DNA of 64,000 bases from contig JAZGGI010000008.1 of the NCBI GenBank assembly GCA_036480375.1, forward strand, positions 3,835 to 67,834. Reading direction: 5' to 3'. Both the position numbers and the translations under genes were made by a program. A model generated the notes under the pieces. That model was given only the letters and a program-made list of their open reading frames with translations, searched no databases and had not been told where the DNA came from. Source of the DNA: Candidatus Zixiibacteriota bacterium. GTDB lineage: Bacteria > Zixibacteria > MSB-5A5 > GN15 > JAAZOE01. Below, piece after piece: positions 1 through 64,000 of the stretch; the first letter of the stretch is position 1, and each line of letters opens with the position of its first letter.

Positions 1-1
1 A

Positions 2-523
2 ATGCGCGTGGAGTCTGGTGCACTGACAGGTACTCTAAACCGGTTTGAAACGAAGTGGTCTGAACTCGCGCCGGATTATCCGATCGACTATATTATCTTG
101 CAAGAGGATATTGAGACTCGTTACAATGGCGAAGGGCAACTGGCGCATATGACCACCTATTTTTCGCTTCTTGCTATCACTGTAGCATGCCTGGGACTGC
201 TCAGTATTACCGCATTTTCAGTCGAACGCCGTGGTAGAGAAATCGCTGTTCGCAAGGTATTGGGAGCCACCGTTTTCAGTATCCTCGAACTGCTCTATAA
301 AGAATTGCTGGTCCTTGTATTGGCGGGAATCACAGTTGCCATTCCGCTTTCCTACTTTGTAATCAACCGCTGGCTGTCAAGTTTTGCCTACCAGGCGACC
401 TTTGGTTGGGAGTTTTTTGTCATATCAGTGGTCATCACTATCGTTATAACAGGACTCACGGTCAGTATTCAGACCGCTCGCGCGGCCCTGGCCAATCCGG
501 TGGATTCTTTAAGATGCGAGTAA
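2..523 (+). CDS. ABC-transporter permease, FtsX/MacB type, C-terminal fragment (5' end outside the window)
   Basis: The ORF is open to the window edge. It has hydrophobic TM segments and the family-typical tail ...QTARAALANPVDSLRCE. Confidence 0.7.
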   Translation: MRVESGALTGTLNRFETKWSELAPDYPIDYIILQEDIETRYNGEGQLAHMTTYFSLLAITVACLGLLSITAFSVERRGREIAVRKVLGATVFSILELLYKELLVLVLAGITVAIPLSYFVINRWLSSFAYQATFGWEFFVISVVITIVITGLTVSIQTARAALANPVDSLRCE

Positions 524-753
524 CCGATCTAATGTGTAACTTATGTAACAGTCATACAGGGTAAATCATTTCCAATTTTGTTGCAATTATCGTAAAGTTA
601 CTCTATTATTAAATGCGAATGCGGGAACCCACCGTCCCCGTTTCACGCGGACAATGGGCCACCGGACTAAATAAAATTGACAACCAAACGTTCACCTGTA
701 TCTTATTTGAAGCAAGCTATATTCTGAGATTTGTCTTAACGTCGGAGAAAAAT

Positions 754-1188
754 ATGTTAAAATATTGCGAGGGCATCAGGAATATCTCAGAAGATGATAT
801 TCTCAGGCTGTATAATTCGGTCAATTGGACCACCTATACAAAAGAACCGGAAAATCTTATCAAGGCCGTAACAAATTCTACCTACGTAGTTATCTGCACT
901 GAGAATGATAAGCTTATCGGCCTGGCGCGCTGTCTGTCTGACGACAGCGCTATCCACTACCTCCAGGATATTCTTGTTGATCCGGATTTCCAGCATCGGG
1001 GGATTGGCCGTGAACTTCTTAATCGATGTTTGAAGAGATTCGAACATGTCAGGTCGCATGTTCTTCTCACCGATGATGATGAAAAACAAAAACTCTTTTA
1101 TGAATCCGTCGGCTATACCAGTATAAAATCACTGAAAAAATCAGTTTTAAATTGTTATGTAAAAATGCCGGGAATGAATTTGGAGTGA
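754..1188 (+). CDS. GNAT-family N-acetyltransferase
   Basis: It has the acetyl-CoA pocket motif FQHRGIGRELL (Q/RxxGxG) and the typical ~145-aa size. I moved the start from 613 to ATG 754 (MLKYCEG...) because the 47 upstream codons look like non-coding read-through. Confidence 0.7.
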   Translation: MLKYCEGIRNISEDDILRLYNSVNWTTYTKEPENLIKAVTNSTYVVICTENDKLIGLARCLSDDSAIHYLQDILVDPDFQHRGIGRELLNRCLKRFEHVRSHVLLTDDDEKQKLFYESVGYTSIKSLKKSVLNCYVKMPGMNLE

Positions 1189-1269
1189 ATGGTTAGGAAT
1201 TACCTCGCAACAAGGTTGTGGTACCAATGCAGTGTATATATAAATCAAATAATAAAAAAATGTGGAATT

Positions 1270-2115
1270 TTAGTTTGCCAGAGTATCTGAAAGTATTAGA
1301 ACCTCTTTGCCCTTGCGAGATTTATAGGTATTATAAAACAAAGAATAATTTCTTAGTTTTCTGTTCGCGTAAAGCTCTCTTATTATACGATTATTGTCGT
1401 AAGTAAGAACCCAGTTGGAATCAGAATGTTCATTCAGCAAACTCGCGAGAAGTTCATGATCCGTATGTCTGTAATGATTAAGATACAAACAAGAACCTTT
1501 TTCATAATATGGCGGATCTAAATATATAAGAACATCTTTCTTGTCCAAGTAATCCTTTATTAATTGAATACCATCCTTTTGGGATATTTCAATCCTGTTA
1601 CGATATTCAGAAAGCTGTTCAATTCTTTTTGCCAAGTTATCCTTATTAAATCTGGCATCAATTTTCCATTTACCTTTTTGATCTATACCGCCAATGACCC
1701 CACCATCTATAATCCCTGAAACATTTGTTCGGTTTAGAAAGAATACTGCAAATCCCAAATCAAATCGTTTAGAGCGGCGATTTTGATATATCAGTCTTTG
1801 ATTTTTCCATTCTCTAATAGTAATTGGAGTAGAGTATATTTTCTTTATAAATTGACGCGTATCACAAATCGCAGATTTCCAAAAAGAATAAATGGCCTTA
1901 TCTAAATCATTTATTATTACGCTATCGACTTTTTCTAAATACAGTAAAGCTAAGGCTGCCCCAGCACCACCTGCGTACGGTTCTATATATGTAGTAGCTG
2001 ATTGAAATTTATTTTTTATCAATTTATCAAAGAATGGAAACAAAAACGTTTTTCCGCCAGGATATCGCAACGGGCTATAATGGTACTTATGATTTCTCTT
2101 ATTTGGTATTTTCAT
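1270..2115 (-). CDS. DNA N6-adenine methyltransferase, D12 class (Dam family)
   Basis: It has N-terminal LRYPGGK, the SAM motif EPYAGGAGAAL (FxGxG type) and the catalytic DPPY (YLDPPYYEKG), in the Dam-family order. Confidence 0.85.
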   Translation of the reverse strand: MKIPNKRNHKYHYSPLRYPGGKTFLFPFFDKLIKNKFQSATTYIEPYAGGAGAALALLYLEKVDSVIINDLDKAIYSFWKSAICDTRQFIKKIYSTPITIREWKNQRLIYQNRRSKRFDLGFAVFFLNRTNVSGIIDGGVIGGIDQKGKWKIDARFNKDNLAKRIEQLSEYRNRIEISQKDGIQLIKDYLDKKDVLIYLDPPYYEKGSCLYLNHYRHTDHELLASLLNEHSDSNWVLTYDNNRIIRELYANRKLRNYSLFYNTYKSRKGKEVLILSDTLAN

Positions 2116-2125
2116 AAAAGCTCCG

Positions 2126-3505
2126 CTACTTCGGGTTTAATATATATCTAAAAAGACTTTCCATAGAATCCCATGCCATTTCGACATCCTTATCAACTGC
2201 AAAAACACTAGGATTATGATTGGTAGCATTGAGAAACTGCGCCGAATACGATGTCATTGTATTATTGCTAATTATCCTCTGGGTGACTTGAGACAATTCC
2301 CTTTTCCTTATTTTGTCCATCTCTTTCTTGAACTCTTTTAGAACATCATCAAGAGAAACAAATTTTCCTCTTCTGGGAGGTGTTATAGTAACGCCCCTTT
2401 GAAGGAAGTATGCCTTTAATGCGCATTCAAGAAAGCTCCTTAAAAGATCATGAGCCGCATTTGGAAATTTGTGAAAATCAATGCTCTGCAACTCTATTAA
2501 CATTCTTCGGACTCCTGGAGCTTTTAATGTAAAAACTATATCTTTTGGAGCAAGCTTTTTTCTTCGCTTTATATTTGGTGGAATTTTTTCCTCGAAATCC
2601 TTACTCGATATTATTCTTGCTCCCTTGGATTGTTTTGGAATGCAAGATTTCGGTAAGGTGGAGAGATATTCACTTCTATTTTTTTCATTATTTAGTGCGC
2701 GAGAGTCTACAACTTTATCAACGACATCTTGAATAATTCTTTTGAATCCTTTTTCAAACTCAAGTTTAGCTATTCTAATTTTAACATCGCCATCTTTAGT
2801 GAATTCGAAGCCCAAGAAATTTCTTACATTTTTGTCTTCATACAATCTTTCCATGGTTGAAGCCGGAAACGATCTCTCATTGTGCACCTTTTTTGCCGTT
2901 TGTTCATTATCATAAGTGATAGATTTTGCTATTTTGTGGAAATTGATCAGTTTTAAGAATTTATCAATATCTACACCGGGATATTCTGTTCGCAATTCCT
3001 GGACGGTTTTGCCTCTTTTTAATTCCGCTTTATAGAAATATGCCTGTCTTAGTGGTCGCCACGGGCGTCTTGTATTTTGTGTATGTTTACTGGCAAGGAA
3101 GTGTCTTACCGATTCACGGTCAGGTGCTAAAATTACAGCAATACTTTTTGGAAATCGTCCTGCGCCTTTAATTAGTTTCTTTACATTTATTTCCTTCGTG
3201 GGTACAATCGCAGGTCGGGCAAGAACTTTGAGAGCCGCGACCCTTCTATTACCATCTATTACGGTGTACTTCTTACCTTCTTTGATAACCACAGGAACTT
3301 CATCGGGAAAAAACCCATTTATGGCCATACTCTCCAAAATTTGCATGGCATTTTCGTTTAAAAAGAGGTCATTAATCAGTGCGGCTTGGGATGATTTAAC
3401 CTCAATCTGTAATCTAATATTTTCAGGATCAAGAAACAATTCAGTGGTCCTCACTTTTTTTCTAGGCCATGATTCATAGTTTGGCTTTACCGATTTTGTT
3501 TTCAT
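2126..3505 (-). CDS. ParB/Srx-fold N-terminal domain protein; the C-terminal ~250 aa are of unknown function
   Basis: YTVIDGNRRVAALKVL matches the ParB box (GxRR). The gene is on the same strand as the methyltransferase and 10 nt upstream of it. I recognise no nuclease or HTH motif in the C-terminal half. Confidence 0.6.
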   Translation of the reverse strand: MKTKSVKPNYESWPRKKVRTTELFLDPENIRLQIEVKSSQAALINDLFLNENAMQILESMAINGFFPDEVPVVIKEGKKYTVIDGNRRVAALKVLARPAIVPTKEINVKKLIKGAGRFPKSIAVILAPDRESVRHFLASKHTQNTRRPWRPLRQAYFYKAELKRGKTVQELRTEYPGVDIDKFLKLINFHKIAKSITYDNEQTAKKVHNERSFPASTMERLYEDKNVRNFLGFEFTKDGDVKIRIAKLEFEKGFKRIIQDVVDKVVDSRALNNEKNRSEYLSTLPKSCIPKQSKGARIISSKDFEEKIPPNIKRRKKLAPKDIVFTLKAPGVRRMLIELQSIDFHKFPNAAHDLLRSFLECALKAYFLQRGVTITPPRRGKFVSLDDVLKEFKKEMDKIRKRELSQVTQRIISNNTMTSYSAQFLNATNHNPSVFAVDKDVEMAWDSMESLFRYILNPK

Positions 3506-3790
3506 ATTTAGTCCTTGATTTAGCTATCGTTATTTATCTATTTTTCAAAATTCTCAAATAATCAGAAAACGAAATTAACCGATGGGCGGGTGCTCCACTG
3601 CCTAAATAGTATAATTATTTTCATTCACTCAATTGCCCAAATTATGGATTCCCGTAAACGCATTTAATTATAGCATAATTATATGATAATGGCAATCACT
3701 TTATCGTTTTTCACAATTTTTACAAAATTTGCCATTAATTACTAACATCTCCCATTTTGTATGAAGAAAGGGAACACACCCCATCCCGCT

Positions 3791-3942
3791 GGGCTTGTTG
3801 AAAAAGTCTTGAAATGATCTTCAGCCTAAGGAATGGGGAAACATTTCGAATCGTAAGTTCTTGATACACAGCAGATCACAATTTTGTTTTCACAAAATCA
3901 AGATCTGCCGCAACTCTTGGCAGTGGTTTTTCAACACGCCCC
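3791..3942 (+). repeat. Copy A of a ~151-nt element bounded by 15-nt terminal inverted repeats (MITE-like element or structured RNA)
   Basis: The ends are GGGCTTGTTGAAAAA ... TTTTTCAACACGCCC. Internal hairpins are ATTTTGT/ACAAAAT (3881-3898) and CTGCCG/TGGCAG (3905-3923). It aligns without gaps to the reverse complement of 32005-32155 with 115/151 matches by hand count. Confidence 0.65.
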
Positions 3943-3969
3943 GCTTTGCGGGAAACCCCTCTCAAGACA

Positions 3970-3997
3970 GGCAAAAGCCTGGCCGGCAAAAGCTTGG
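3970..3997 (+). repeat. Tandem direct repeat GGCAAAAGCCTGG-CC-GGCAAAAGCTTGG in non-coding DNA
   Basis: It was read directly from the sequence: two 13-mers with 12/13 identity spaced by 2 nt. Confidence 0.5.
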
Positions 3998-4100
3998 TAG
4001 GGGAACAGGCGACGCCTGTTTTCAGGGCTCCTCGCAAGCGACTCCTGCAGGAAAAATATGAATGCTTTAGTAATCACCACCGATTTGATATGACCCAAAA

Positions 4101-4127
4101 CGTTAATCTGAGGAAACAAACCCATTT
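4101..4127 (+). repeat. 27-bp exact repeat, copy 1 (CGTTAATCTGAGGAAACAAACCCATTT)
   Basis: Its exact reverse complement occurs at 53524-53550. Identity stops at both ends. Confidence 0.9.
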
Positions 4128-4264
4128 GGGGAAGATGAAAATCCTCGCAATACGAAAAAGGACAAAACGAACCCAATTCTCCGCAATCCAAGACAAAACA
4201 GTAAATTACAAGGAATTTTCAAAAAATATTATGTGGATAACTTCTGCAAAAGCAGAATCAGTGA

Positions 4265-4302
4265 CCACAACAAAGCCCCGGTCGATTGCTCAACCGGGGC
4301 TT
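4265..4302 (-). terminator. Probable intrinsic terminator of the E1 dehydrogenase gene
   Basis: A 9-bp stem AGCCCCGGT/ACCGGGGCT with a 10-nt loop is followed on the minus strand by TTTGTTGTGG. It lies about 25 nt after the stop. Confidence 0.5.
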
Positions 4303-4326
4303 ATGGGTGCAGGAGATAGTATGCGG

Positions 4327-6624
4327 TCATTTATAACTCATGACTTCCTTAACGGCCGCCATGACTTTCTTATTATTGGGCAAACAAATATCATCGCCGT
4401 CAACTCCGTAAGCAACTCGCGAATCGATAGCGGTCACCAGTTTGACAGGCGCTTCAAGATAATTTATCGCGCTGCCCTGCGTAATAACACTCGAAATCGT
4501 CGCCGCCACCCCGCCGTGCCAGCGGTCTTCACTGATGACAACGACTCGCCCGCATTCCTCGGCAGATTTAATTATTGTTTCTTTATCCAAAGGACGCAGC
4601 GTCCGCAGATCGACAACCCGCACGCCGGTTCTTTCTTCCTTGAGAATCTCGGCTACCCGGCGAGCCAGATGAACCGTCGTACCATAGGTGATAATTGCGA
4701 CGTCTTTATGCTCGGGATAATAAACTTTGGCCTGCCCGAACGGGATCATTTCATCAAGTGGCGGATATTCGGTTTCGACCGGCACGCCTTCCCAATCGCG
4801 GCGGTTATACAGCGCTACCGATTCGCAGAAAAGAACCGGGTCGTTGCAGGCGTAGGCGGTGCGCAAAAGCCCGGCGGCATCATAAGCGTTCGACGGCACA
4901 ACAACATGAATCCCCGGCATATTGATAAAGGTACCGATATTGGCTTCGCTATGCCAGAACGCGCCCGCGCCCTGCTTATACCCGCCGTAGGAAACACGAA
5001 TCACCATCTGCGCCGTCCATTGACAATTGGAACGCTGATAGAGAGTGCAAATCCGATCTTTAAGAATTTGATACCCGGGCGATACATAATCGAGAAACTG
5101 AATTTCCGGAATCGGCCGACGGCCCTGAAAAGTATGCCCGATAGCGCGTCCGAGGATACCGGCTTCATCAAGAGGCGTATTGAAACTACGGCTCTGACCG
5201 AATTCACGCTGCAGGTTTTTGGAAAGGAGGAACACCCCGCCTTTGCCTTTGAGATTTTTCATCTTCTCGGGATGATTCAATATCTCGCCCGAAAAATCGC
5301 CGACATCCTCGCCAAAAACCAAAGCGTCTTTGGAATGAGCCAGAATTTCCATCAGGGAATAATTAATCGCCGAGCGCATCGTCATCGGCCCCAAATTTTC
5401 CGGGAGATCCGGTTTGGGGAAATATTTTTTCTTATGATACTCGGCGAATTTTTTCTTTCGGTCAATCTTAGCGGCCTTTAAAATTTCCGTCCAGGTTTTT
5501 TGAGCTTTTTCGAAAGTATAATCGTAAACTTTGGTTTCCACGTCCTCCAACCGTTTCGGTTGATAATCTTTGACCGCTTTTTCGGACTCCTCCATTACTA
5601 TTTTTTCAATCTCATCCCACATCTGGCCAATCTGTTTGGGAGTAATCGCGCCGTCTTTGATAAATGTCAAACCGGTTTTCAATGTGCAATCATTCTCGAT
5701 ATGCCATTTCTGCAAATCGGGATCCATGTAGAACGACTGGTCATCCGAACCGGAATGCGACTCCTCACGAGTAACTTTGACATTCATCAATACCGGCCCG
5801 GCCCCGCTGCGAGCGTAATCTATCGCCTGGCATACATTCTTGATCGATTCCTTTATATTAGTTCCGTCGAAGCGAAAGATTTTAAGACCAAAACGCTGAA
5901 ATCCCTCGAATGGTGTAGTTGGATCGCCTTCGGGGAATTGTTCTTCGACCGAAACCGAGATGGCCCAGCCGCAATTGTAAATTGCGTAAACATTGGGTGA
6001 TTTATCGAAGACCGAATAAAACACAGCCCGCGCAAATTCCGGCGAGGAGGTGCTTCCTTCACCGATGGAACAATATACGACAGCATCTTTGGGATAACGC
6101 CCGCCGGGAAACACTGCCTGTTTTGAAATAGGCGCCGGATGAATAATCGCTCCGCCCAGTCCGGCTGCCTCGAGAGCATGCGATCCCGTTGGCGATGCCT
6201 GAGGCAGAATTTCTTTGTCGAGATAAGCCGAATGGGATGGCTGAAGCATACCTCCCACCGCCTGACCGCGACGATCGCCAATCGCCTCCAGCATTTTTTC
6301 ATGAACCGATACGCCGCGATGCATATCAAAACCTTTATTGCGATAATACCCGCTAAAAGGATCATTAGGCCGAAGAATTTGCGCCGCGACAATATCAATC
6401 ATTTCCTTGCCGCCGCAACCGATTACAAACCTGCAATGGCCCTTTCGCAAAAGCAGCTTTTCTTCCATCTCGATGCGCCGAGCCAGAAGCATTGAGTAGA
6501 ACATTTTTCGCAGTTCGCTGACTTTCAGGCCGCCGTAAGCCGGCAATGCCTGTCCCGCTTTTTTGGCCGCACCTTTCCTGCCTTTATAATTCTTTAGTTT
6601 TTCCGCGAGAGCTTTTATATGCAC
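4327..6624 (-). CDS. Thiamine-diphosphate 2-oxoacid dehydrogenase E1 component, fused alpha+beta subunits
   Basis: The N-terminal half has an E1-alpha-like ThDP motif (IGEGSTS, about 26 residues, then NCGWAIS). The C-terminal half is E1-beta/transketolase-like (NTPLDEAGILGRAIG, IPEIQFLDYV). Confidence 0.8.
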   Translation of the reverse strand: MHIKALAEKLKNYKGRKGAAKKAGQALPAYGGLKVSELRKMFYSMLLARRIEMEEKLLLRKGHCRFVIGCGGKEMIDIVAAQILRPNDPFSGYYRNKGFDMHRGVSVHEKMLEAIGDRRGQAVGGMLQPSHSAYLDKEILPQASPTGSHALEAAGLGGAIIHPAPISKQAVFPGGRYPKDAVVYCSIGEGSTSSPEFARAVFYSVFDKSPNVYAIYNCGWAISVSVEEQFPEGDPTTPFEGFQRFGLKIFRFDGTNIKESIKNVCQAIDYARSGAGPVLMNVKVTREESHSGSDDQSFYMDPDLQKWHIENDCTLKTGLTFIKDGAITPKQIGQMWDEIEKIVMEESEKAVKDYQPKRLEDVETKVYDYTFEKAQKTWTEILKAAKIDRKKKFAEYHKKKYFPKPDLPENLGPMTMRSAINYSLMEILAHSKDALVFGEDVGDFSGEILNHPEKMKNLKGKGGVFLLSKNLQREFGQSRSFNTPLDEAGILGRAIGHTFQGRRPIPEIQFLDYVSPGYQILKDRICTLYQRSNCQWTAQMVIRVSYGGYKQGAGAFWHSEANIGTFINMPGIHVVVPSNAYDAAGLLRTAYACNDPVLFCESVALYNRRDWEGVPVETEYPPLDEMIPFGQAKVYYPEHKDVAIITYGTTVHLARRVAEILKEERTGVRVVDLRTLRPLDKETIIKSAEECGRVVVISEDRWHGGVAATISSVITQGSAINYLEAPVKLVTAIDSRVAYGVDGDDICLPNNKKVMAAVKEVMSYK

Positions 6625-6845: not shown

Positions 6846-6875
6846 TTGACAAATTTCTCTTTATATTTATATTAT
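6846..6875 (+). promoter_or_regulatory. Candidate sigma70-type promoter of the 6924 gene
   Basis: TTGACA (6846-6851), an 18-nt spacer, then TATTAT (6870-6875), about 48 nt upstream of the ATG. Confidence 0.3.
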
Positions 6876-6923
6876 GACAAAGACGATATAGAAACGAGCA
6901 CTTTTCCCTTAACCGGGGGACAA

Positions 6924-8480
6924 ATGAATCGGAAAATATCAAAAGTAATAGTCTTTATTTGCTGGGGCATTATATATTTTTTTCTGTCCGGTTGCGGCGG
7001 TAAACTGGCAGGGCCGGAAAATGATAAAGCTCAATTTGATATTAAAATTGAATACATGCGCGATGCATATTTGGGTCATTACAGACAAGCCTCTATAGAA
7101 TTCGCCGGCGATTTTTCGCAAATAACCGCTCTCGATTTAAGAATTACTTATGACCCGGCTTATGTAGATTTTGTCGAAGGATACGCTGGCGGTCTTCTCA
7201 TTGACAATAAATGGGAATATTTTACATATAGCTATATCCCACCGGTAGATTCCGGTGACATAAAAACCCCGCCTTTGCTGCATCTTTATGCATTCAACAA
7301 TATTAGCTTTGATCCTGTGCCCTTACAAGGTCAGACCGATGATTCAACATCGATTGCCGTTTTGACATTTATTACAAAAAATAATCATGATAATGACTGT
7401 TCGTTTTCGTCTATTAGATTTTACTGGGAAGACTGCTATGACAATCTACTATTCACCGATTTCCCCGACAGCGCGATTTGCGCCACAGCCGTCTATGATA
7501 CCGGTCAACTTGTCTGGTCTGGCAATGTGGATGAATTCGGAATTGGCATTATTCCATCCTTATGCGCCGAAGATTCGCAGGTGGTCTTTTCACCGACCGC
7601 CAATTTCATAAATGGTGGGTTTGGAATTATCTGTGATTCATTGATTAATGATCACCCTTGGTACGATCTGTATACTATCGCCACTGCGGTTATGATGACT
7701 AATTATTTCATATCGGGACCTGCGGCATTTGGAAGTCAAGCAGATTATTGGACAGAAAATACTGACTTTAATGCCAATGGTACACCTCTTGAAGTTGGAG
7801 ACTTAGTCTATCTTGTAAGGGTTATTGTGGGCGATGCCCTTCCATATTTGACTATTCCAGATTTGGGACCGGTTGAGATTATACATTTTATCGATGGAGA
7901 AAACAATTCAATTTATTACGAATCCCCTTATGATCTCGGGGCAATGTTGCTGGAATTCGACGTAACGAGCGATTTGTTCGAACCGATCCTGATTGATAAC
8001 GCCGCAGATATGGACATCGTTTACCACAACGATTCAGGGCAATTTAGAATACTGGTTTTCAATATAGGAACTGAAAAAATCGAAGAGGGCAATGGCGGTA
8101 TTTTAGGCTTTCAATCAGCAGGTGAAGTCAATTTGAACTATGCCGAGATTTCCCATTATCACGGCGAAAATGTTCCGGTTGAAATCAACGATGAACCGGT
8201 TGTCTTCGAATTAATGCAAAATTACCCTAATCCGTTTAGCTCATCGACCGCAATACAAATCGCTCTGGCCTTTGAATCCGATTGGGCTATTGAAATATTC
8301 AATATATATGGCGAAACGATTCGAAAATTTAACGGTCATTCCGCGCCGGGTATGATTGAAATTATATGGGACGGCAAAGACGATCACGGTAATGATGTCC
8401 CCGGCGGTGTCTATTTCTACCGTGCCACTGTCTGTGACCAGATAATAACTAAAAAGATGATGCTCCTGAGAGATCTATAA
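6924..8480 (+). CDS. Surface lipoprotein with a cohesin-like N-terminal module, one dockerin-like segment and a T9SS-type C-terminal sorting domain
   Basis: The start was moved to ATG 6924 (MNRKISKVIVFICWGIIYFFLSGC, lipobox LSGC). ITALDLRITYDPAYVDFVEG is cohesin-like. DFNANGTPLEVGDLVYLVRVIVG is a dockerin-like EF-hand. The C-terminus is LMQNYPNPFSSSTAIQIAL...GGVYFYR. Confidence 0.7.
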   Translation: MNRKISKVIVFICWGIIYFFLSGCGGKLAGPENDKAQFDIKIEYMRDAYLGHYRQASIEFAGDFSQITALDLRITYDPAYVDFVEGYAGGLLIDNKWEYFTYSYIPPVDSGDIKTPPLLHLYAFNNISFDPVPLQGQTDDSTSIAVLTFITKNNHDNDCSFSSIRFYWEDCYDNLLFTDFPDSAICATAVYDTGQLVWSGNVDEFGIGIIPSLCAEDSQVVFSPTANFINGGFGIICDSLINDHPWYDLYTIATAVMMTNYFISGPAAFGSQADYWTENTDFNANGTPLEVGDLVYLVRVIVGDALPYLTIPDLGPVEIIHFIDGENNSIYYESPYDLGAMLLEFDVTSDLFEPILIDNAADMDIVYHNDSGQFRILVFNIGTEKIEEGNGGILGFQSAGEVNLNYAEISHYHGENVPVEINDEPVVFELMQNYPNPFSSSTAIQIALAFESDWAIEIFNIYGETIRKFNGHSAPGMIEIIWDGKDDHGNDVPGGVYFYRATVCDQIITKKMMLLRDL

Positions 8481-13203: not shown

Positions 13204-13231
13204 CGCTCCCTCCCTCGAGGGCTGTCGAATT

Positions 13232-13400
13232 AATAGTCCTGAGTTCGGCAGGTCTCCTGGCTTGCGGCATCAAGCCTATCAGGCTCCCTTCCCCCCGAAT
13301 TTGATATCCGGGAGTGGGATATGAACCTTTCGTAGCCGCTTACAGTAGCGGGGCTGCGACGGATTTTCACCGTCTTCCCTATTATCCGCGACGCGGACCG
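13232..13400 (-). promoter_or_regulatory. Cobalamin (B12) riboswitch
   Basis: The minus strand reads AATAGGGAAGACGGTGAAAATCCGTCGCAGCCCCGCTACTGTAAGCGG ... GCCGCAAGCCAGGAGACCTGCCGAAC. That covers the conserved core and the B12 box (AGCCAGGAGACCTGCC). It ends about 30 nt before the receptor start. Confidence 0.85.
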
Positions 13401-13454
13401 AAATCGTTTACTTTGTCAGTATATGGCTTGAATTAAATTATGTCAATAAAAAAA

Positions 13455-31962: not shown

Positions 31963-32004
31963 TGAATATTAACTCGCGTGCCCGCTTATAAAATCCACCA
32001 GAAA

Positions 32005-32155
32005 GGGCTTGTTGAAAAACCGCCGCCGAGAGTTACGGCGGGTCTTGATTTTGTAAAAACAAAATTGTAACCTGCCGTAGACCAAAAACTTATAAATCGA
32101 AACGAATCTCTATTATTGGTGCTGAAGTTCACTTTTGAGCTTATTCAACAAGCCC
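32005..32155 (-). repeat. Copy B of the ~151-nt inverted-repeat-bounded element (inverted relative to copy A)
   Basis: The ends are GGGCTTGTTGAAAAA ... TTATTCAACAAGCCC. The internal hairpin is CCGCCG/CGGCGG (32023-32041). There are 115/151 ungapped matches to copy A. It lies 50 nt after the ompA-like stop. Confidence 0.65.
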
Positions 32156-53651: not shown

Positions 53652-54782
53652 ATGGCTAGTATCCATTTTAAGAAGAGAAAAGACGGTAGCAAAACTTATT
53701 ATGTGGTGGTTTGCAGGCCAGGTGGCCATAAGTGGATTAAGGGAGGATCGCTCAAAGATGCCAAAATCTTGAAAAAAGAGATTGAATCTTTGGAAAAATC
53801 TGAAAGGATTGAGAAGTTGGGACTTGTAAGCGAGAGGAAGCGCATTGATGCTTTCTTTCAGGAATATGCGGATTATGTGCGCTTGAGAACTGCACCCAGT
53901 ACTGTTAGGCGGTATCTTACGGTGGAAAATACTTTTATCATTTTTCTGAAGATGTTTCACCCTAATATCAGGCTTCTCGTGCAGATTACGCCTGAGATTA
54001 TTGAATCATATCAAGTACAACGATTAAGGTCTATTGAATTGAAAAGTTCAGCGGATGGAGATAAACCTGGGGTTCATAGAAAAAAGCGCTTACCCCTTCC
54101 TCAAACAGTAAACACCGAAGTCATAGTGTTGGGTTCAGCATTTATTTGGGCTCATAGCCGAGAACTAATTCCTACAGTACCAACCAAAAAAGTAAAACCG
54201 CTTCGAGCTAAGCTAAAAAGAAAAGTTAGACTTCTCGATTCAAAAGAATGCAAACATTTTTTGAGAACTGCACGGCTAATGGCCAGAGATAATAATCGGC
54301 TCAAAGTATTTTATTTGATTTTCAAATTCTTACTCAATACAGGTCTGCGATCAGGAGAATTATGCAATTTAACCTGGGATGATGTTAATCTTGAAACCGG
54401 CTTGATAAAAATTCAGCCAAAAGAAGGCTGGACACCAAAAACATATTCCAGAGAGTTTTTTCTAAATGAACATTCAATTAAAATCCTAAAACGAATCGGT
54501 CAATCAGAAGGACTGATATTCAGAACCAAAACTGGAAAACAACTCGATACCGATGATATACGACGAGCATTAATAAAAATAGGCAAAGAAGCGGATTTTA
54601 ATGACCTAACCAAAGTTCATGACCTCAGACATACATTCAATTCATTGATGCAGATGAACGGGGTTGATCCAGCCACAATGAGCAAAATACTTGGCCATAG
54701 GGACATTAAAACAACCATGATCTATACACATCAGACCACCGACCATTTAAAGAAGAGTATTGAGAAGATTGGGATAAAGTGA
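53652..54782 (+). CDS. Tyrosine recombinase / phage-type integrase
   Basis: It has the catalytic-domain motifs LLNTGLRSGE, HDLRHTF and LGHRDIKTTMIYTH. The start was moved to ATG 53652 behind AAGGAG. Confidence 0.9.
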   Translation: MASIHFKKRKDGSKTYYVVVCRPGGHKWIKGGSLKDAKILKKEIESLEKSERIEKLGLVSERKRIDAFFQEYADYVRLRTAPSTVRRYLTVENTFIIFLKMFHPNIRLLVQITPEIIESYQVQRLRSIELKSSADGDKPGVHRKKRLPLPQTVNTEVIVLGSAFIWAHSRELIPTVPTKKVKPLRAKLKRKVRLLDSKECKHFLRTARLMARDNNRLKVFYLIFKFLLNTGLRSGELCNLTWDDVNLETGLIKIQPKEGWTPKTYSREFFLNEHSIKILKRIGQSEGLIFRTKTGKQLDTDDIRRALIKIGKEADFNDLTKVHDLRHTFNSLMQMNGVDPATMSKILGHRDIKTTMIYTHQTTDHLKKSIEKIGIK

Positions 54783-54811
54783 TTAGTATTTAAAACTATT
54801 TCTTGGGATAA

Positions 54812-55426
54812 TCAAAGCAATAATCCGTTTATATAATAATCCAAAATGGCATCACCAACCCAATAGGTAATTATTGAGGAAAATACCAGGAAGGAGCCAA
54901 ATGGGATAGTTCTTATTTTTTTTCCAACTACAAGCATTTTCGCCACAGAAACATATAGAAGACCTAATATTGCGCCAATAAATAGCGTGATGAATATCCC
55001 CTGCCATCCAACAAAGAGTCCCAGCACTGCCGCCAGTTTTATATCACCTCCGCCCATAGCGGGTTTTCGAAATACTATTGATCCAATCCATTCAATTCCC
55101 AGAAATAAAACAAATCCGAATATTCCACCCAGAATTGAATCAAAGAAACTCGGCTGATGTGGAATAATCGCCAGAAATATCCCTAATATTGAATAAATAA
55201 CCAACAAATTATTTGGAATGATTTGAAATTTAAAGTCAGCAATACATACAATTCCGAATAAAATTGAAAGAAGTAGAACTCCCAATCCATTTTCAGATGA
55301 AATGCCACCAAAATAAATCAGCAAAGCCGGGATAATCCATAATAAGTCCAGAAAAACGAAAGCAGGTCTAAATGGAAGTTTGTGTTCAGATTGTCTTAAG
55401 ATAATTGCACTGAGATAATAAATCAT
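54812..55426 (-). CDS. Prepilin peptidase (A24 family), short form without the N-terminal Cys-rich methyltransferase region
   Basis: It has the first Asp box IADFKFQIIPN and the second Asp box MGGGDIKLAAVLG. It is 204 aa. Confidence 0.8.
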   Translation of the reverse strand: MIYYLSAIILRQSEHKLPFRPAFVFLDLLWIIPALLIYFGGISSENGLGVLLLSILFGIVCIADFKFQIIPNNLLVIYSILGIFLAIIPHQPSFFDSILGGIFGFVLFLGIEWIGSIVFRKPAMGGGDIKLAAVLGLFVGWQGIFITLFIGAILGLLYVSVAKMLVVGKKIRTIPFGSFLVFSSIITYWVGDAILDYYINGLLL

Positions 55427-58146: not shown

Positions 58147-60066
58147 ATGATACTTCGAAAAATTATACTAACTTCATTTATCGTTTGTTTTGCGTATTCT
58201 TTTAGCTTTTCGCAAGATGTTATAGATGATTCGCCAGATAATGTCAATACCAGTGTAGTCGATACTCTGGAATCAATGAATCTTCATACAATTATCGATA
58301 CTACGATAATGATTCCGCAACTGGAGTTTGTCGAAAATAATCTGGATGATGCCCTGAAAGCATTGGTGAGAGCTTATGAACTATCAGTTTTTATTGATAC
58401 TTCTGTCGCCGGGACGATCACATTGCGGCTTGATAATGTATCTCTCAATGACGCTTTATTGTTTATCATCAAGGAATATGCTCTGGCCTGGGAAAAAACC
58501 GGGGAGATAATTAAAATTTATAAACCGTTTCAACCTCCGCCGCCACCCGCTCCATTGGAAATTGTCATAGATAATGGTTTGTTAAACTGCAATTTGAAGA
58601 ATACTCCATTGCAAAAAGTAATTGACGAATTGATTGATCTGGCCGGAGTCAATATTATAATCGAGTCGGGAACTTCAGGAATTATCTCGGGTAGATTGCA
58701 GGGAGTTATGGTTGATAAGGCTCTCAATGTTTTGATGACTTCCAATGGTTTTACTATCCGGTCAGCAGACGGGATATATTATATCGGGGTAATGAGAACA
58801 TCCGGTGAAGGAGGACACAGGGCATCGAGATTTTCGATTCATTGTGATAATAATCTGGTTACTGTCAATGTCACGAATGCTCCTTTGGGTGATATCCTGT
58901 CGGCCATTGCCGATAATTGCGGAACCAGCTTTTTCATGCGAGGCACGATTGAAGGCAGCGTCAACGCCAGTTTTTCTGATTTGCCTTTGGATGACGCCCT
59001 TGTTTCTCTACTGCGAAATACTCAATACACTTATAAGAAGGACAATGATTTATATTTCATCGGGGCAAAAAATTCACAGGATATGTTTGTAACCAAATTG
59101 ATTCTGCTAAAGCATTTAGTAGCCAATACAATTGAACCGTTGATTCCAACATCACTGACAAGCCAGGTTTCGCTTAAAGTTATCGTGGAGCATAATGGTC
59201 TGATTGTTGTCGGCCCCAAAACTGTCATAGACGATATTCGGCTGTTTCTTGAAGAAGTTGATATTCCTCCAGCGATGGTACTATTTGATGTATTGGTGGT
59301 GGATTATTCGACAACCGATATATTTCAATTTGATCTTTTGATGAATAATACCGGAACGAGCGGTAATATTCCCACTCAGAATTATTATCCCAATATCGAT
59401 ATGAGCGGTACGGGAAAAACTCTGCAGGATGATTTAGATTGGGTAGGAAATCAAATTGGAGTATCCAAAATCGGCCCATTGTCAGATGACTTTTTTGCCC
59501 GCTTACAAATAATGCAACAGGAAGGCAAAGCCAATATCAGGTCACGACCGAAGATATCTTCGTTATGCGGTCATTCGGCATCGATAAATGTCGGTACGAC
59601 TCAATATTATCTGCTCGAAACAAAAATAGTTCACCCCTCCGCTCAATCTGATGTATCGACTCAAACTTCGCAAAGATTTGAAAAAATTGAAGCCAATATG
59701 AGTATTGAGGTAACGCCGTTTGTTAATGAAACAGGCGAGCTGATAGTCGAGATTAAACCGGAATTTTCGACTCCGGCTGCCGCCTTTGATTCTGAAATTC
59801 CCCCGACTATAAATCATCGCATTCTGCATTCGACAGTCAGACTCAGAAACGGAGAGACAATTATCCTTGGCGGTTTGGTCCAGGAAAGCGAGAACAAGAC
59901 GATAAAGAAATTTCCAATCCTGGGGTCATTACCTTTTATCGGGCCGTTATTCCAGAGTACCCATAAAACAACTAATCAGTCTGAATTGATGATTTATATC
60001 ACACCGCATGTTTATTATGGCAATGAACAGAACATTGATTTGGAAAGCTTGATTGATAGAAAGTAG
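58147..60066 (+). CDS. Secretin (GspD/PilQ family) with three tandem STN-like N-terminal modules
   Basis: The C-terminal secretin domain has ILGGLVQESENKTIKKFPILGSLPFIGPLF...LMIYITPHV. Three ~75-aa N-terminal repeats each end in ...DDAL/DKAL...Y(Y/F)IG. Confidence 0.85.
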   Translation: MILRKIILTSFIVCFAYSFSFSQDVIDDSPDNVNTSVVDTLESMNLHTIIDTTIMIPQLEFVENNLDDALKALVRAYELSVFIDTSVAGTITLRLDNVSLNDALLFIIKEYALAWEKTGEIIKIYKPFQPPPPPAPLEIVIDNGLLNCNLKNTPLQKVIDELIDLAGVNIIIESGTSGIISGRLQGVMVDKALNVLMTSNGFTIRSADGIYYIGVMRTSGEGGHRASRFSIHCDNNLVTVNVTNAPLGDILSAIADNCGTSFFMRGTIEGSVNASFSDLPLDDALVSLLRNTQYTYKKDNDLYFIGAKNSQDMFVTKLILLKHLVANTIEPLIPTSLTSQVSLKVIVEHNGLIVVGPKTVIDDIRLFLEEVDIPPAMVLFDVLVVDYSTTDIFQFDLLMNNTGTSGNIPTQNYYPNIDMSGTGKTLQDDLDWVGNQIGVSKIGPLSDDFFARLQIMQQEGKANIRSRPKISSLCGHSASINVGTTQYYLLETKIVHPSAQSDVSTQTSQRFEKIEANMSIEVTPFVNETGELIVEIKPEFSTPAAAFDSEIPPTINHRILHSTVRLRNGETIILGGLVQESENKTIKKFPILGSLPFIGPLFQSTHKTTNQSELMIYITPHVYYGNEQNIDLESLIDRK

Positions 60067-61303
60067 AGTTGTGTCAACTGCAATCAAATATTTGGGTTCA
60101 ATCTTAAAAGATTGTTTGCCTATCAGGCGGGCTCAATATTGTTTGATAATTGGTCCTGAATATTTCAGCTTTTTGCGAATAAATTCCAGAAAAGAAACAG
60201 ATATATATCTACAAAACAAGGTCGACGAACATTTTGATCAGGCTTTGGATCAATTTCTGAAGGACGTTAAAAATGGTAAACATTATTTTGGTCAGGATGT
60301 TGTCCTTTTAATTACCGAACCGGTAGCTTTCACACTTATAAGATCGCATGAAAATACTAACCTTGAGGATTTCAGAGAAGAGTGTAGAAAGCTTATTCCC
60401 GAGACTACTCAACAGGAATTTAGATTAATTAATATTGCCGGTAAGGGATATTATACTGTTTTCAGGATCGATGAAGAATATGTAAAATCATCACTCAAAA
60501 TCATTGATAAACATGATATCTTAATCAATCAGGTGATGCCATTATCTGGATTAATCATTAATGAATTTCAAAACTCTAATAATCTAAAACTTCAGAATTG
60601 TGAGTTTAAGCTAGGGATTTATCGTTGCGCATTTGGATTTGATCCGAATAAGCCATTCTATTTGGAATCAATCAAAGATAACAATCTGTTACAATCTTTA
60701 TGTCCGGAAGTTGAGACTGAAATTAAATCAGTATTCAATAATCCACTGCCACCTGTCGTGAAGAATGCATTTGCTCTTACCAATCTCATCCCCAAATCTG
60801 TACAATATCTGTTAATCGGCACTGGCAGTAGTCGTCTTATGACCTCAATTGTTGCGGTCTTACTAATATGTTTTACGATTCTTGCCGGTGTCTTTGCGGT
60901 TTTGAAAAATAATGCCGAGGATTCATACAATCAATATCAGAACAGCCTTGCCGAAATTAGTTCTGTTGAAAGCCAAATTCACAAAGTCGAACGAGAATTG
61001 GAATCGTACGATCAAGGAGTATTATTACATGCGAACTTTAGCGCTCATTTGTCAACATTTTGCCAGAGGATACCATCAGGTCTTCAGGCAATAGAGTTAA
61101 AAGCTGAAAGGAAAGATAGGGGCGAGATAACCGTTACTGCACACGGGAAAACACGCAGGGAGACATCGGTTTTCAGGTATCGGGATTATGTTTATGCAAA
61201 TTCCGGTAATCGACCGGTCGAAATCAGCAGTATCAGCAGGCTCAACTCACCCTATAACATGCCGGATAGTATTTGGTATCGTTTTACTATTACGATGAAT
61301 TAA
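60053..61303 (+). CDS. GspL-like / fused PilM-PilN-like assembly protein (architecture-level call)
   Basis: It has a ~260-aa cytoplasmic part, one TM (LMTSIVAVLLICFTILAGVFAVL) and a ~130-aa periplasmic coiled-coil part. The start is uncertain (TTG 60053 or GTG 60071). Confidence 0.4.
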   Translation: MIESRVVSTAIKYLGSILKDCLPIRRAQYCLIIGPEYFSFLRINSRKETDIYLQNKVDEHFDQALDQFLKDVKNGKHYFGQDVVLLITEPVAFTLIRSHENTNLEDFREECRKLIPETTQQEFRLINIAGKGYYTVFRIDEEYVKSSLKIIDKHDILINQVMPLSGLIINEFQNSNNLKLQNCEFKLGIYRCAFGFDPNKPFYLESIKDNNLLQSLCPEVETEIKSVFNNPLPPVVKNAFALTNLIPKSVQYLLIGTGSSRLMTSIVAVLLICFTILAGVFAVLKNNAEDSYNQYQNSLAEISSVESQIHKVERELESYDQGVLLHANFSAHLSTFCQRIPSGLQAIELKAERKDRGEITVTAHGKTRRETSVFRYRDYVYANSGNRPVEISSISRLNSPYNMPDSIWYRFTITMN

Positions 61304-62273: not shown

Positions 62274-63644
62274 ATGATTAATCTGAAAAATCAAAAAGGC
62301 TCGGTTTTGGTTACGGCACTGGTTTCAGTTGCGGTTCTTCTCATTTTGTTTTTATCGGCATTCAGTTATGGGATCGGTCGTTACAGCGTCCATGTTAAAA
62401 ACCAGCATAAGATTCGGGCTCAATATTTGGCTGAATCCGGGATTAACCGCGCAATTCATCTGCTGGAGAATAATACAACCAAGATTGAAGAATTACATAA
62501 AGATTCGCTTCATGTTATAGTAGAAGATATTGGTAGCTTTACCGTTACCTGTCGGCCTTATGGCGGGTATCAACTTTTTAGCTCAATGGGGAAATCCGGA
62601 AGCCAGCAATCCAAGCTAACTGCAATTATCGGTATAGGTAACTCGCATTATACACAATATGCTATAACTTTGACCGATGAAAACTATCCGCTGACAGCAA
62701 CCGGCCACACAAAAATAACCGGTGATATTTTGACAGGAAATGTTCATTTAACCACAGGCCAAATAGACGGACGGGGAATTTATGATAAACAATTTCATGT
62801 CGGAAGGCATTTGATTGACCCTGTCGCATCGAAACTTAAATTATCAACCAGGTATCTACTGGATTACAAAGAATACGTTTTTCAAGAATTAAAAGATGAT
62901 GCACACCGTGTGACGACTTCACTACTACTAAATGCGGGCGACGAAGATTTCCTGAAAGAGAATCCTGTAGTTTATATAGAGGGTAATCTTGAGATTAATG
63001 GGTTGAAATTTAGCGCCAAAGATGAAACCGTTACAATCATGGTCAATGGTATGGCAGAAATCCGAGGCAATAGTCGATTGGAGGGCTTTATAGAGATATT
63101 GGCTGGGAAATGTATCCTAATAAATGATAGTTCAGTTATTTCAGGTGGTGTCTGTTACGGTGAAGATAGCCTTGTATTAAGCGATGATGTTTGGTTTTCA
63201 GGTCAGGCTATTACTGAAACTAATCTAATCGTCCGCGATAAGACATATATCAATTATCCTTCTCTGCTTTTATCTCTGGGGGATATTGAAAGAAATCAAA
63301 TCGACCATGCCGTAACTCTAAGTACAAGATATCCTATTTCAGCCTTGTGCATACTTATCTCAGAAGATACGCTGATAAATTACCCGCATGAGAATATCTA
63401 CGTTGATACAGGTTCTTCAGTCAGAGGTATCTTATGTTCATCTGATTATATTGATCTCAGAGGAAAAGTAATTGGGAGTGTGATGACAAGGAATTTCTGG
63501 TATGCCCAGCCACCGACAACATTTATCAATTGGCTTCGCGATATCAACATTAATCATGCAGAATTAGATTACAATCCGGTAATGCCGTTTGTTATTGACT
63601 CAATTTCAAATTATGGAATACTTGCAATGGATTACAGAAAATGA
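62274..63644 (+). CDS. Large GspK/PilX-like minor-pseudopilin-like protein with a beta-helix-like body
   Basis: The N-terminus NQKGSVLVTALVSVAVLLILF resembles the GspK/PilX class (no Glu+5). The remaining ~400 aa contain repeated short beta-turn units. Confidence 0.4.
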   Translation: MINLKNQKGSVLVTALVSVAVLLILFLSAFSYGIGRYSVHVKNQHKIRAQYLAESGINRAIHLLENNTTKIEELHKDSLHVIVEDIGSFTVTCRPYGGYQLFSSMGKSGSQQSKLTAIIGIGNSHYTQYAITLTDENYPLTATGHTKITGDILTGNVHLTTGQIDGRGIYDKQFHVGRHLIDPVASKLKLSTRYLLDYKEYVFQELKDDAHRVTTSLLLNAGDEDFLKENPVVYIEGNLEINGLKFSAKDETVTIMVNGMAEIRGNSRLEGFIEILAGKCILINDSSVISGGVCYGEDSLVLSDDVWFSGQAITETNLIVRDKTYINYPSLLLSLGDIERNQIDHAVTLSTRYPISALCILISEDTLINYPHENIYVDTGSSVRGILCSSDYIDLRGKVIGSVMTRNFWYAQPPTTFINWLRDININHAELDYNPVMPFVIDSISNYGILAMDYRK

Positions 63645-64000
63645 CTACTAATATCATTAAAAATCAGGATGGTGTGACAATAATTGAAGTCCTTGTCGGG
63701 GCGGTTGTTTTTATGATTGGTTTTTCGATATTGGTTTTTATGCTTAACCAAATGATTTCAAATTATTCGGTAAATGATTTGACCTCGGCTACTCGACTGG
63801 CAAGTAAATCGATGGAAATGACAATCACATATCAGGATACGATTTCTTACGACTCCACAATTAATGTTTCGAATATTGATTTTGGAGTTAAAAAAACAGT
63901 TCAAATTGATAATGATCTGGCAAAGATTTATATCAATGTTGCCAGGAGTTCAACCAAAAAGGAATTGTGCAGTCTTTATGGCGAGTTCATTTTTCGACAA
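63641..64000 (+). CDS. Prepilin-type (pseudo)pilin, 3' end outside the window (absent from the ORF track)
   Basis: My translation is MTTNIIKNQDG|VTIIEVLVGAVVFMIGFSILVF..., a class III signal with Gly-1 and Glu+5. Its ATG overlaps the previous stop (ATGA), and the frame is open to the window end. Confidence 0.7.
   Translation, partial: MTTNIIKNQDGVTIIEVLVGAVVFMIGFSILVFMLNQMISNYSVNDLTSATRLASKSMEMTITYQDTISYDSTINVSNIDFGVKKTVQIDNDLAKIYINVARSSTKKELCSLYGEFIFRQ

Follow-up and report, generated by a model that had tools for sequence, protein, structure and literature searches.

A 64,000-nucleotide stretch of contig JAZGGI010000008.1 (assembly GCA_036480375.1, Candidatus Zixiibacteriota), here called the window, contains at 1189-3790 an islet of low G+C content with two genes, A and B. 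We consider it likely that this islet is a horizontally acquired copy of PD-λ-5, a two-gene anti-phage system, residing in a Zixibacteria genome and acting by a restriction-modification (RM)-like mechanism. An initial annotation of the same DNA had suggested a non-canonical, restriction-like defence module in which a ParB-fold protein takes the place of the restriction enzyme. Our results support this suggestion, and the module proves to be one already known, PD-λ-5. By sequence, A and B fall into the respective PD-λ-5 protein families. A comparison with a defence-system library, which had been recommended, matched both proteins to PD-λ-5 models of PADLOC. A was assigned to PD-Lambda-5_A in 24 of the 25 PADLOC matches listed (best 4.3e-53), and several of these models were matched end to end (PDLC04017 by residues 9-431 and PDLC04015 by residues 20-453). 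B matched PD-Lambda-5_B (PDLC04018, 4.8e-108), with its residues 12-279 aligned to 4-273 of 291. The two genes are adjacent and co-oriented, as PD-λ-5 requires. Pfam, NCBIfam and PDB sequence searches with A gave nothing above threshold, and the protein was recognised by PADLOC and PHROGs only.

PD-λ-5 was found as a two-gene locus of strain ECOR7 in a functional selection of Escherichia coli isolates and was listed as 'ParB/HEPN, methyltransferase' (Vassallo et al. 2022, PMC9519451). Carried on a low-copy plasmid in E. coli under its native promoter, it affected the plating of 9 of 10 phages (PMC9519451). It was protective against λvir and T7, which have unmodified bases, as well as against T-even phages (PMC9519451). 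Thus, the phage phenotype that the initial annotation had asked about exists for the family, in its E. coli member. Cloning of the locus needed a Δmrr host (PMC9519451), consistent with an active methylase. The literature searched offered no mechanism for PD-λ-5.

For direct alignment, the homologous protein of a Kosakonia conjugative plasmid served as a proxy for the ECOR7 prototype (RCQ13837.1/RCQ13838.1). The ECOR7 entry itself could not be identified in a protein search seeded with the Kosakonia protein, which returned many enterobacterial homologues. The Kosakonia pair scored 7e-174 on PD-Lambda-5_A and 5e-123 on PD-Lambda-5_B. Its A protein aligned end to end with the A protein of the window (23% identity, E 3e-21), and the key motifs are common to both. 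Our cassette shares with the prototype its two genes, their order, with the gene of the ParB/HEPN protein ahead of that of the D12 adenine methylase, and the form of a compact mobile cassette. It differs in its host, a Zixibacteria metagenome-assembled genome (MAG) instead of an E. coli prophage, in the length of A, which is about 40 residues shorter than the prototype of about 500 amino acids, and in lying alone between housekeeping genes.

Domain architecture of the two proteins

An AlphaFold2 model of A was built on an alignment of 59 sequences (predicted local distance difference test (pLDDT), 93.4; predicted template modelling (pTM) score, 0.71). In Foldseek searches of the PDB, its N-terminal part matched ParB-CDP (6sdk, E 3.5e-5) and ParB-CTPγS (7bnr and 7bnk), with values to 1e-4, and also Noc and KorB. 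The alignments span the whole of the truncated ParB, Noc and KorB chains (262-279 columns; template modelling (TM) score on the target, 0.56-0.62). A profile search from the A family also matched ParB of Helicobacter pylori (4umk). As modelled, residues 1-280 resemble a full ParB N-terminal domain joined to a helix-turn-helix (HTH) domain, as in the CTP-gated clamps.

Among the 59 homologues, N29, R31, G85, N86, R87, R88, H141, W149, R220 and H430 are invariant. N29 and R31 belong to LDPxNxR, which is Box I-like, and G85-N86-R87-R88 form Box II. The ParB box previously read from the first gene, VIDGNRRVAALKVL, was indeed found in A, and it contains the Box II residues. Box III (ENxxR) is not recognisable in an alignment made by eye; the equivalent helix has an invariant (K/R)-H-T together with W149. 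The Pfam ParB_N model falls below threshold for A and is matched by 2 of the 59 relatives. ParB-fold proteins bind CTP, ATP or GTP unpredictably, and their specificity cannot be predicted from sequence or by AlphaFold3 (PMC12704722). For this reason no nucleotide is assigned to A.

The canonical ParB clamps (ParB/Spo0J, Noc and KorB) are the best structural matches to A over about 270 columns, covering the N-terminal and HTH domains, and the A family shares their Box I-like PxNxR and Box II GxRR motifs without exception. In contrast to these clamps, A has neither ParA nor parS, and a HEPN-like bundle replaces the C-terminal dimerisation domain. Instead of a recognisable Box III Glu-Asn it carries the invariant His-Thr and Trp, and it stays below the family score thresholds. 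Thus the partition ParB model TIGR00180 gave 17.3 bits for A against a cutoff of 58.45, and no parA gene adjoins it.

The C-terminal 250 or so residues of A had been described as matching nothing recognised. With AlphaFold and Foldseek they resolve into the ParB-type HTH and a probably HEPN-like domain. When residues 321-459 were modelled alone, a six-helix bundle was obtained (pLDDT 96.7, pTM 0.90). Nearly all of its top PDB matches in Foldseek are HEPN proteins, including 4nqf, 1wol, 1o3u, HepT toxins, Csm6 and sacsin, and these matches are weak (E 0.7-7, TM 0.5-0.57). The fold check that the initial annotation had proposed for this region therefore points to a HEPN-like bundle at the far C-terminus, not a plain HTH. 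No HEPN family was hit when 31 C-terminal domains were scanned against Pfam at E<=10, and a profile search against the PDB gave no HEPN match. For the prototype, HHpred support for HEPN was likewise weak (DUF4145, 35.6%; HEPN_RiboL-PSP, 8%; PMC9519451).

The A family conserves E338, R356 and E360 (LLRSFLE). R356 and N431 are near-invariant, and R356/E360 lie in the first core helix of the bundle. H430 is invariant within a motif Φ-N/D-x-x-x-H-N, in which the position of the Arg of Rx4-6H is taken by Leu, Met or Phe. Of Rx4-6H, the family retains the His and the polar residue that follows the Arg, and the canonical catalytic motif is absent. By fold and context the C-terminal domain is probably HEPN-like, with a non-canonical motif. 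Because the C-terminal 250 residues include this domain, a candidate nuclease is present. The earlier view that the islet has no recognisable nuclease or integrase holds for the integrase and is qualified by this candidate for the nuclease.

B is, from its sequence, a D12 N6-adenine (m6A) methyltransferase with intact S-adenosylmethionine (SAM) and DPPY motifs. It matched Pfam MethyltransfD12 (PF02086, 9.6e-21) over residues 18-254, and its DPPY bears out the D12 assignment of the initial annotation. The score with the orthodox Dam (GATC) model TIGR00571 was 60.2 bits, below the cutoff of 114.85. The nearest solved structure is 7m6b (8.8e-19), and the PADLOC Type II methyltransferase model PDLC03358 was also matched (1.7e-83).

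A two-gene operon with a 10-nt spacer and a first gene for a 459-aa protein had been proposed. Its coordinates and gene sizes were confirmed, with both genes on the minus strand (Table 1). The spacer, CGGAGCTTTT, includes a GGAG ribosome-binding site for B, and AAGGA lies 7 nt 5' of the ATG of A. A consensus scan gave a strong σ70-like promoter match ahead of A (11/12). TGnTATAAT-like boxes are also present just upstream of A in the homologous cassettes of loci L005, L008 and L089. When a conserved operator was searched for upstream of A in the homologous cassettes, only these shared -10-like boxes were found.

Table 1. Positions of the islet, its two genes and their domains, motifs and signals in the window
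Feature	Position	Strand	Basis or remark
Low-G+C islet with the cassette	1189..3790	.	G+C 34.9%; lies within segment 1-4271, non-collinear with the closest Zixibacteria contig
Gene B, 281-aa D12-class N6-adenine DNA methyltransferase (PD-λ-5_B)	1270..2115	-	PADLOC, Pfam PF02086
Catalytic DPPY of B, residues 200-203	1507-1518	-	
SAM motif EPYAGGAG of B, residues 45-52	1960-1983	-	
A-B spacer, 10 nt, with GGAG ribosome-binding site	2116..2125	-	Read directly from the sequence
Gene A, 459-aa PD-λ-5_A-type protein (ParB N-terminal domain, ParB-type HTH, HEPN-like C-terminal domain)	2126..3505	-	Open reading frame (ORF); PADLOC
HEPN-like all-helical domain of A, residues ~330-459	2129..2518	-	Model of residues 321-459, Foldseek
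L-N-x-x-x-H-N motif of A with H430	2213-2233	-	
LLRSFLE of A with R356/E360	2426-2446	-	
Linker of A with little secondary structure, residues ~283-329	2519..2659	-	DSSP on the AlphaFold2 model
Helical DNA-binding (HTH) region of A, residues ~161-282, similar to the central domain of ParB/Noc/KorB	2660..3025	-	Foldseek; limits approximate, from secondary structure
ParB/Srx N-terminal domain of A, NTP-binding type, residues ~12-160	3026..3472	-	Foldseek and invariant motifs
KHT motif of A	3080-3088	-	
GNRR of A within VIDGNRRVAALKVL, residues 82-95	3221-3262	-	
LDPxNxR motif of A	3413-3433	-	
Promoter-like site TTGCCA-17-TATAAT with TG, ~160 nt upstream of A	3667..3695	-	Consensus scan 11/12; consensus match only

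Conservation of the A-B pair and its neighbourhoods

The A family is large. At a cutoff of E<=1e-3, an exhaustive profile-free search returned 2,785 cluster representatives (50% identity), and at E<=1e-30 it returned 219. To assess linkage, 80 genome loci were fetched, and 59 full-length homologues were aligned. These loci come from Actinomycetota, Pseudomonadota, Bacteroidota, Planctomycetota, Acidobacteriota, the candidate phyla radiation (CPR) and one Thermoplasmata MAG. In about 75 of the 80, the gene immediately following A encodes a homologue of B, usually on the same strand and with a gap of 0-100 nt; most of the remaining loci either lie at a contig end or match A over the N-terminus alone. 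Marinobacter phage AS1 has this pair too, beside the phage integrase, and so does the Kosakonia conjugative plasmid. The A-B pair is thus conserved as a unit across phyla, on phages and on plasmids. Patescibacteria and Firestonebacteria are among the unrelated lineages that contain the closest relatives of A (57-74% identity).

We surveyed 10 neighbourhoods of close homologues, including the window. In three of them (the window, L088 and L093) the cassette stands alone among housekeeping genes. Elsewhere it is flanked by two integrases (L005), adjoins an Mrr-type nuclease and a type I RM system (L089), lies among insertion sequence (IS) elements beside a DUF499/DUF1156/SNF2 system (L090), or is placed inside a conjugative element (L091). 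Of the other copies, one belongs to a prophage and has an M/R.HinP1I/Vsr unit as its neighbour (L092), one follows a type III-like RM system with integrase and tail genes (L094), and one stands between TIR, patatin and PLD genes (L095). True ParA and ParB occur near the cassette in L091 and L094, as genes separate from A. The neighbourhood check suggested by the initial annotation thus shows homologues in defence islands, prophages, conjugative elements and lone islets, and not confined to partition or replication contexts. This pattern is that of mobile defence cargo and not of a partition system.

Several variants of the pair were seen. In L090 (10001-12544), a 64%-identical A homologue ends after about residue 419, lacking the His-bearing helix, and no B gene is present. 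A DDE transposase gene follows the cut A directly, presumably an IS insertion, and the IS-rich island also has BrnT. In a subgroup of Actinomycetota (L044, L050, L052, L055-L058, L060-L063 and L070), A matches over residues ~10-239 only, and a convergent methylase lies 800-980 nt downstream. Because the match stops at about residue 239, the C-terminal half of A appears to be different or much diverged in these loci. P2-like phages carry a related three-gene variant adjoining the portal gene (L002 3965-7001, Escherichia phage vB_EcoM-12474III; the same place in P2, Wphi and L-413C). Its genes encode a 372-aa ParB-N protein, a 330-aa protein that has no family match and, in convergent orientation, a C5-cytosine methylase. 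The 372-aa protein matches the N-terminal half of PD-Lambda-5_A only (7.5e-23). When the Kosakonia cassette DNA was searched against complete E. coli genomes, the sole result was an integrative and conjugative element (L087 3930-6579, NZ_CP054282.1), in which a related D12 adenine methylase directly follows an annotated 'ATP-dependent nuclease'. This arrangement suggests that the same type of methylase can be paired with a different effector.

The islet and its surroundings

The cassette is of distinctly low G+C content. The value is 33.1% for B, 36.8% for A and 31-32% for the intergenic parts, as compared to 41.7% for the GNAT gene, 48.7% for the end of the MacB gene and 49.5% for the E1 dehydrogenase gene in the flanks. 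Among all 2602-nt segments of the 64 kb (mean 43.0%, sd 2.6%), the islet is close to the lowest, and 0.16% of the segments are lower. The sharp compositional island described in the initial annotation is therefore real, and its figures of 28-30% inside and 55% outside were off by 5-7 points. A convergent GNAT acetyltransferase gene (613-1188) lies on one side of the cassette and a 2-oxoacid dehydrogenase E1 gene (4327-6624, minus strand) on the other.

The closest related Zixibacteria contig (L096) encodes an E1 protein of 92% identity, and its DNA is 79% identical over 7.8 kb. It is collinear with the window from 11997 down to 4272, just past a 13-bp hairpin (4273-4285/4290-4302) located beyond the stop codon of E1. 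Positions 1-4271, which hold the cassette, the GNAT gene and the end of MacB, are wholly non-syntenic in this contig, and these genes are absent within 10 kb there and likewise in a second relative. No empty site or insertion scar could be defined, the closest Zixibacteria contigs being syntenic up to 4272 and diverging beyond. No integrase or tRNA gene was found in or adjoining the islet, a search there for flanking direct repeats or a third conserved gene found none, and no Rfam family was matched within 1000-4500. The low G+C content, the synteny break and the cross-phylum distribution together indicate that the cassette was acquired horizontally. A protein of identical sequence (100%), annotated as hypothetical, is encoded on a 139-kb contig of a candidate division Zixibacteria MAG (GCA_044344285.1).

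The inverted repeat noted earlier as abutting the islet near 3791 is present just beyond it. Its 18-nt arms (3788-3805/3927-3944) are complementary at 16 of 18 positions and are separated by 121 nt. A terminator-like hairpin (3905-3923, plus strand) lies inside its loop, and a weaker third copy of an arm, with 3 mismatches, was seen at 32002-32019.

Other features of the region were recorded. About 9.6 kb beyond window position 1, the source contig (L004, 21004-21380) has a gene for an 843-aa Mrr_cat-domain protein; this gene draws attention since E. coli Mrr had to be deleted for the cloning of PD-λ-5. Further 1-kb bins of low G+C (54001-55000, 36.2%; 60001-61000, 34.9%; 63001-64000, 36.4%) may mark other acquired segments. 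GTAC is found 86 times in the whole window, where base composition would predict about 239; counts are also low for CATG (167) and high for TCGA (344). This skew may reflect restriction-site avoidance or dinucleotide bias. A full-length cobalamin riboswitch was detected at 13230-13417 (minus strand, 120 bits). A 544-aa ORF at 6846-8480 (plus strand), to which the contig annotation gives no family, ends with the segment QNYPNPFSSSTAI, which we take to resemble a type IX secretion C-terminal sorting domain.

Competing interpretations and a possible mechanism

Several known systems resemble the cassette in part. Computational cataloguing in 2013 already described ParB-HEPN fusions and operons of 'HEPN + ParB nuclease + DNA methylase' (Anantharaman et al., PMC3710099). 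The families named there (Saro_3948 and MAE_28990), likened to ours by their description, share the domain combination and the RM association; they mostly keep Rx4-6H, whereas the A family keeps only the His. As in Type II RM systems with D12 methylases, a mobile, island-like unit closely couples a cognate m6A methylase with a DNA-binding effector. Unlike in these systems, no PD-(D/E)xK, HNH, GIY-YIG or PLD endonuclease is found here, and the 'R' subunit is a ParB-HTH-HEPN-like protein. GmrSD, BrxU and SspE also combine an N-terminal ParB/Srx nucleotide-binding sensor (DGxxR-type motif) with a C-terminal nuclease-type effector in one polypeptide used for defence. Their effector is HNH/DUF1524 whereas that of A is HEPN-like, A has in addition a ParB-type HTH, and their target is modified or phosphorothioate-sensed DNA whereas the cassette here has a cognate methylase. 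Pfam GmrSD_N was weakly matched by 3 of the 59 A-family members.

In GmrSD-family Type IV enzymes, ParB/DUF262 domains serve as sensor-NTPase modules. This role and the few weak GmrSD_N matches would agree with a modification-dependent, Type IV-like restriction, in which modified foreign DNA would be the target of A, and B would be either regulatory or unrelated. To our knowledge, Type IV enzymes have no obligatory cognate methylase, whereas the methylase is linked to A in about 75 of 80 loci. The HNH/DUF1524 domain is absent from A in Pfam scans, and PD-λ-5 protected against λvir and T7 besides the T-even phages. Since its cognate methylase is obligatory, the modification-dependent variant offered by the initial annotation is unlikely, and we give this reading hardly any weight. 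Just as little is given to the idea that the cassette is the remnant of a partition system, that is, a ParB homologue that has lost ParA and parS and stands beside an unrelated orphan Dam-like methylase. The likeness of the first 280 residues of A to segregation ParB, Noc and KorB, HTH included, and a weak match to PHROG 1033, 'ParB-like partition protein' (1.4e-6), speak for it. Against this, neither the window nor the majority of homologous loci have parA beside A, the real ParA and ParB of L091 and L094 are separate, and methylase linkage is near-universal. The low TIGR00180 score (17 bits with a cutoff of 58), the missing ParA and the replaced C-terminal dimerisation domain effectively refute a partition remnant, and the partition or anti-restriction remnant named as an alternative in the initial annotation is not supported.

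A different possibility is a counter-defence or epigenetic cassette. B would then methylate element or host DNA to evade restriction, and A would be a DNA-binding regulator or loader instead of an effector. ParB-fold proteins fused to or adjoining DNA methyltransferases are enriched in prophages, for which an anti-defence role was suggested (PMC12704722), and the pair does occur in phage AS1 and near other methylases. However, what has been validated for the family is that it protects cells from phages, and the pair is found in chromosomal defence islands as well. The His, Arg and Glu of the HEPN-like domain are conserved across the aligned members (down to ~26% identity over the whole protein), and this conservation across the family argues for a catalytic effector. 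Counter-defence is thus an improbable explanation. Somewhat less improbable, and still to be doubted, is a selfish addiction module with post-segregational killing, in which loss of B would leave A attacking the demethylated host and phage defence would be a side effect. Such a module could explain why plasmids, conjugative elements, prophages and integrase-flanked islets carry the pair, why it is a compact two-gene unit with its own putative promoter, and why the C-terminus of A and B were lost together in L090. It is nevertheless compatible with defence and does not exclude it, and the E. coli homologue gave protection from 9 of the 10 phages when carried, with its native promoter, on a low-copy plasmid (PMC9519451).

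Some observations weigh against assigning an RM-like anti-phage function to the islet. Phage protection was shown for the E. coli member only; identity to enterobacterial members is only about 23%, in an alignment to the Kosakonia proxy. Three of the 10 close homologues, this copy included, lie amid housekeeping genes and not in defence islands. ParB Box III, which carries the catalytic Glu-Asn of the CTPase, is unrecognisable in A, and the identity of its NTP is unpredictable from sequence (PMC12704722). The HEPN call is weak, with Foldseek E-values of 0.7-7, no Pfam or PDB profile match and a hydrophobic residue in place of the Rx4-6H Arg, and the domain could be non-catalytic or DNA-cutting. 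Finally, A precedes B in one operon with no controller protein seen, an arrangement that poses a problem for the protection of a new host at establishment.

By RM logic and by analogy with related systems, PD-λ-5 most likely works as follows. B would methylate adenines at target sites in host DNA and so provide a mark of self. A would bind DNA via its ParB-type HTH, and the invariant GNRR nucleotide-binding pocket could be an NTP-dependent switch, as in the ParB/DUF262 domains of GmrSD, BrxU and SspE. On unmethylated invader DNA, A would fire its C-terminal HEPN-like effector, which would cleave nucleic acid, most plausibly RNA as an abortive or growth-arrest component, or alternatively DNA. 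Standing in place of the ParB dimerisation domain, the HEPN-like domain would probably also provide a dimer contact. HEPN domains are usually RNases that act as dimers, so the C-terminal domain may both dimerise A and cause an abortive-type arrest. A bolder and rather speculative version, which we regard as possible though not likely, makes A a nucleotide-gated ParB-type clamp serving as an immune sensor. Its HTH would load on DNA that lacks the m6A mark of B, the GNRR motif would close the clamp, and the HEPN-like domain would be both dimer interface and effector, with the Arg of its motif supplied from another helix.

The cassette is an ordinary new copy of a catalogued mobile defence family, here in the poorly studied phylum Zixibacteria. 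The PD-λ-5 family is very large and crosses phyla, including CPR (Patescibacteria) and at least one archaeal MAG. The structure model sharpens the annotation of A to what appears to be a complete ParB N-terminal domain with HTH, followed by a HEPN-like domain with an atypical active-site motif, and the invariant residues provide a short list for mutagenesis. If the clamp-sensor proposal is true, restriction-type discrimination of self from non-self and an abortive, RNase-type response would be joined in one protein of 459 amino acids.

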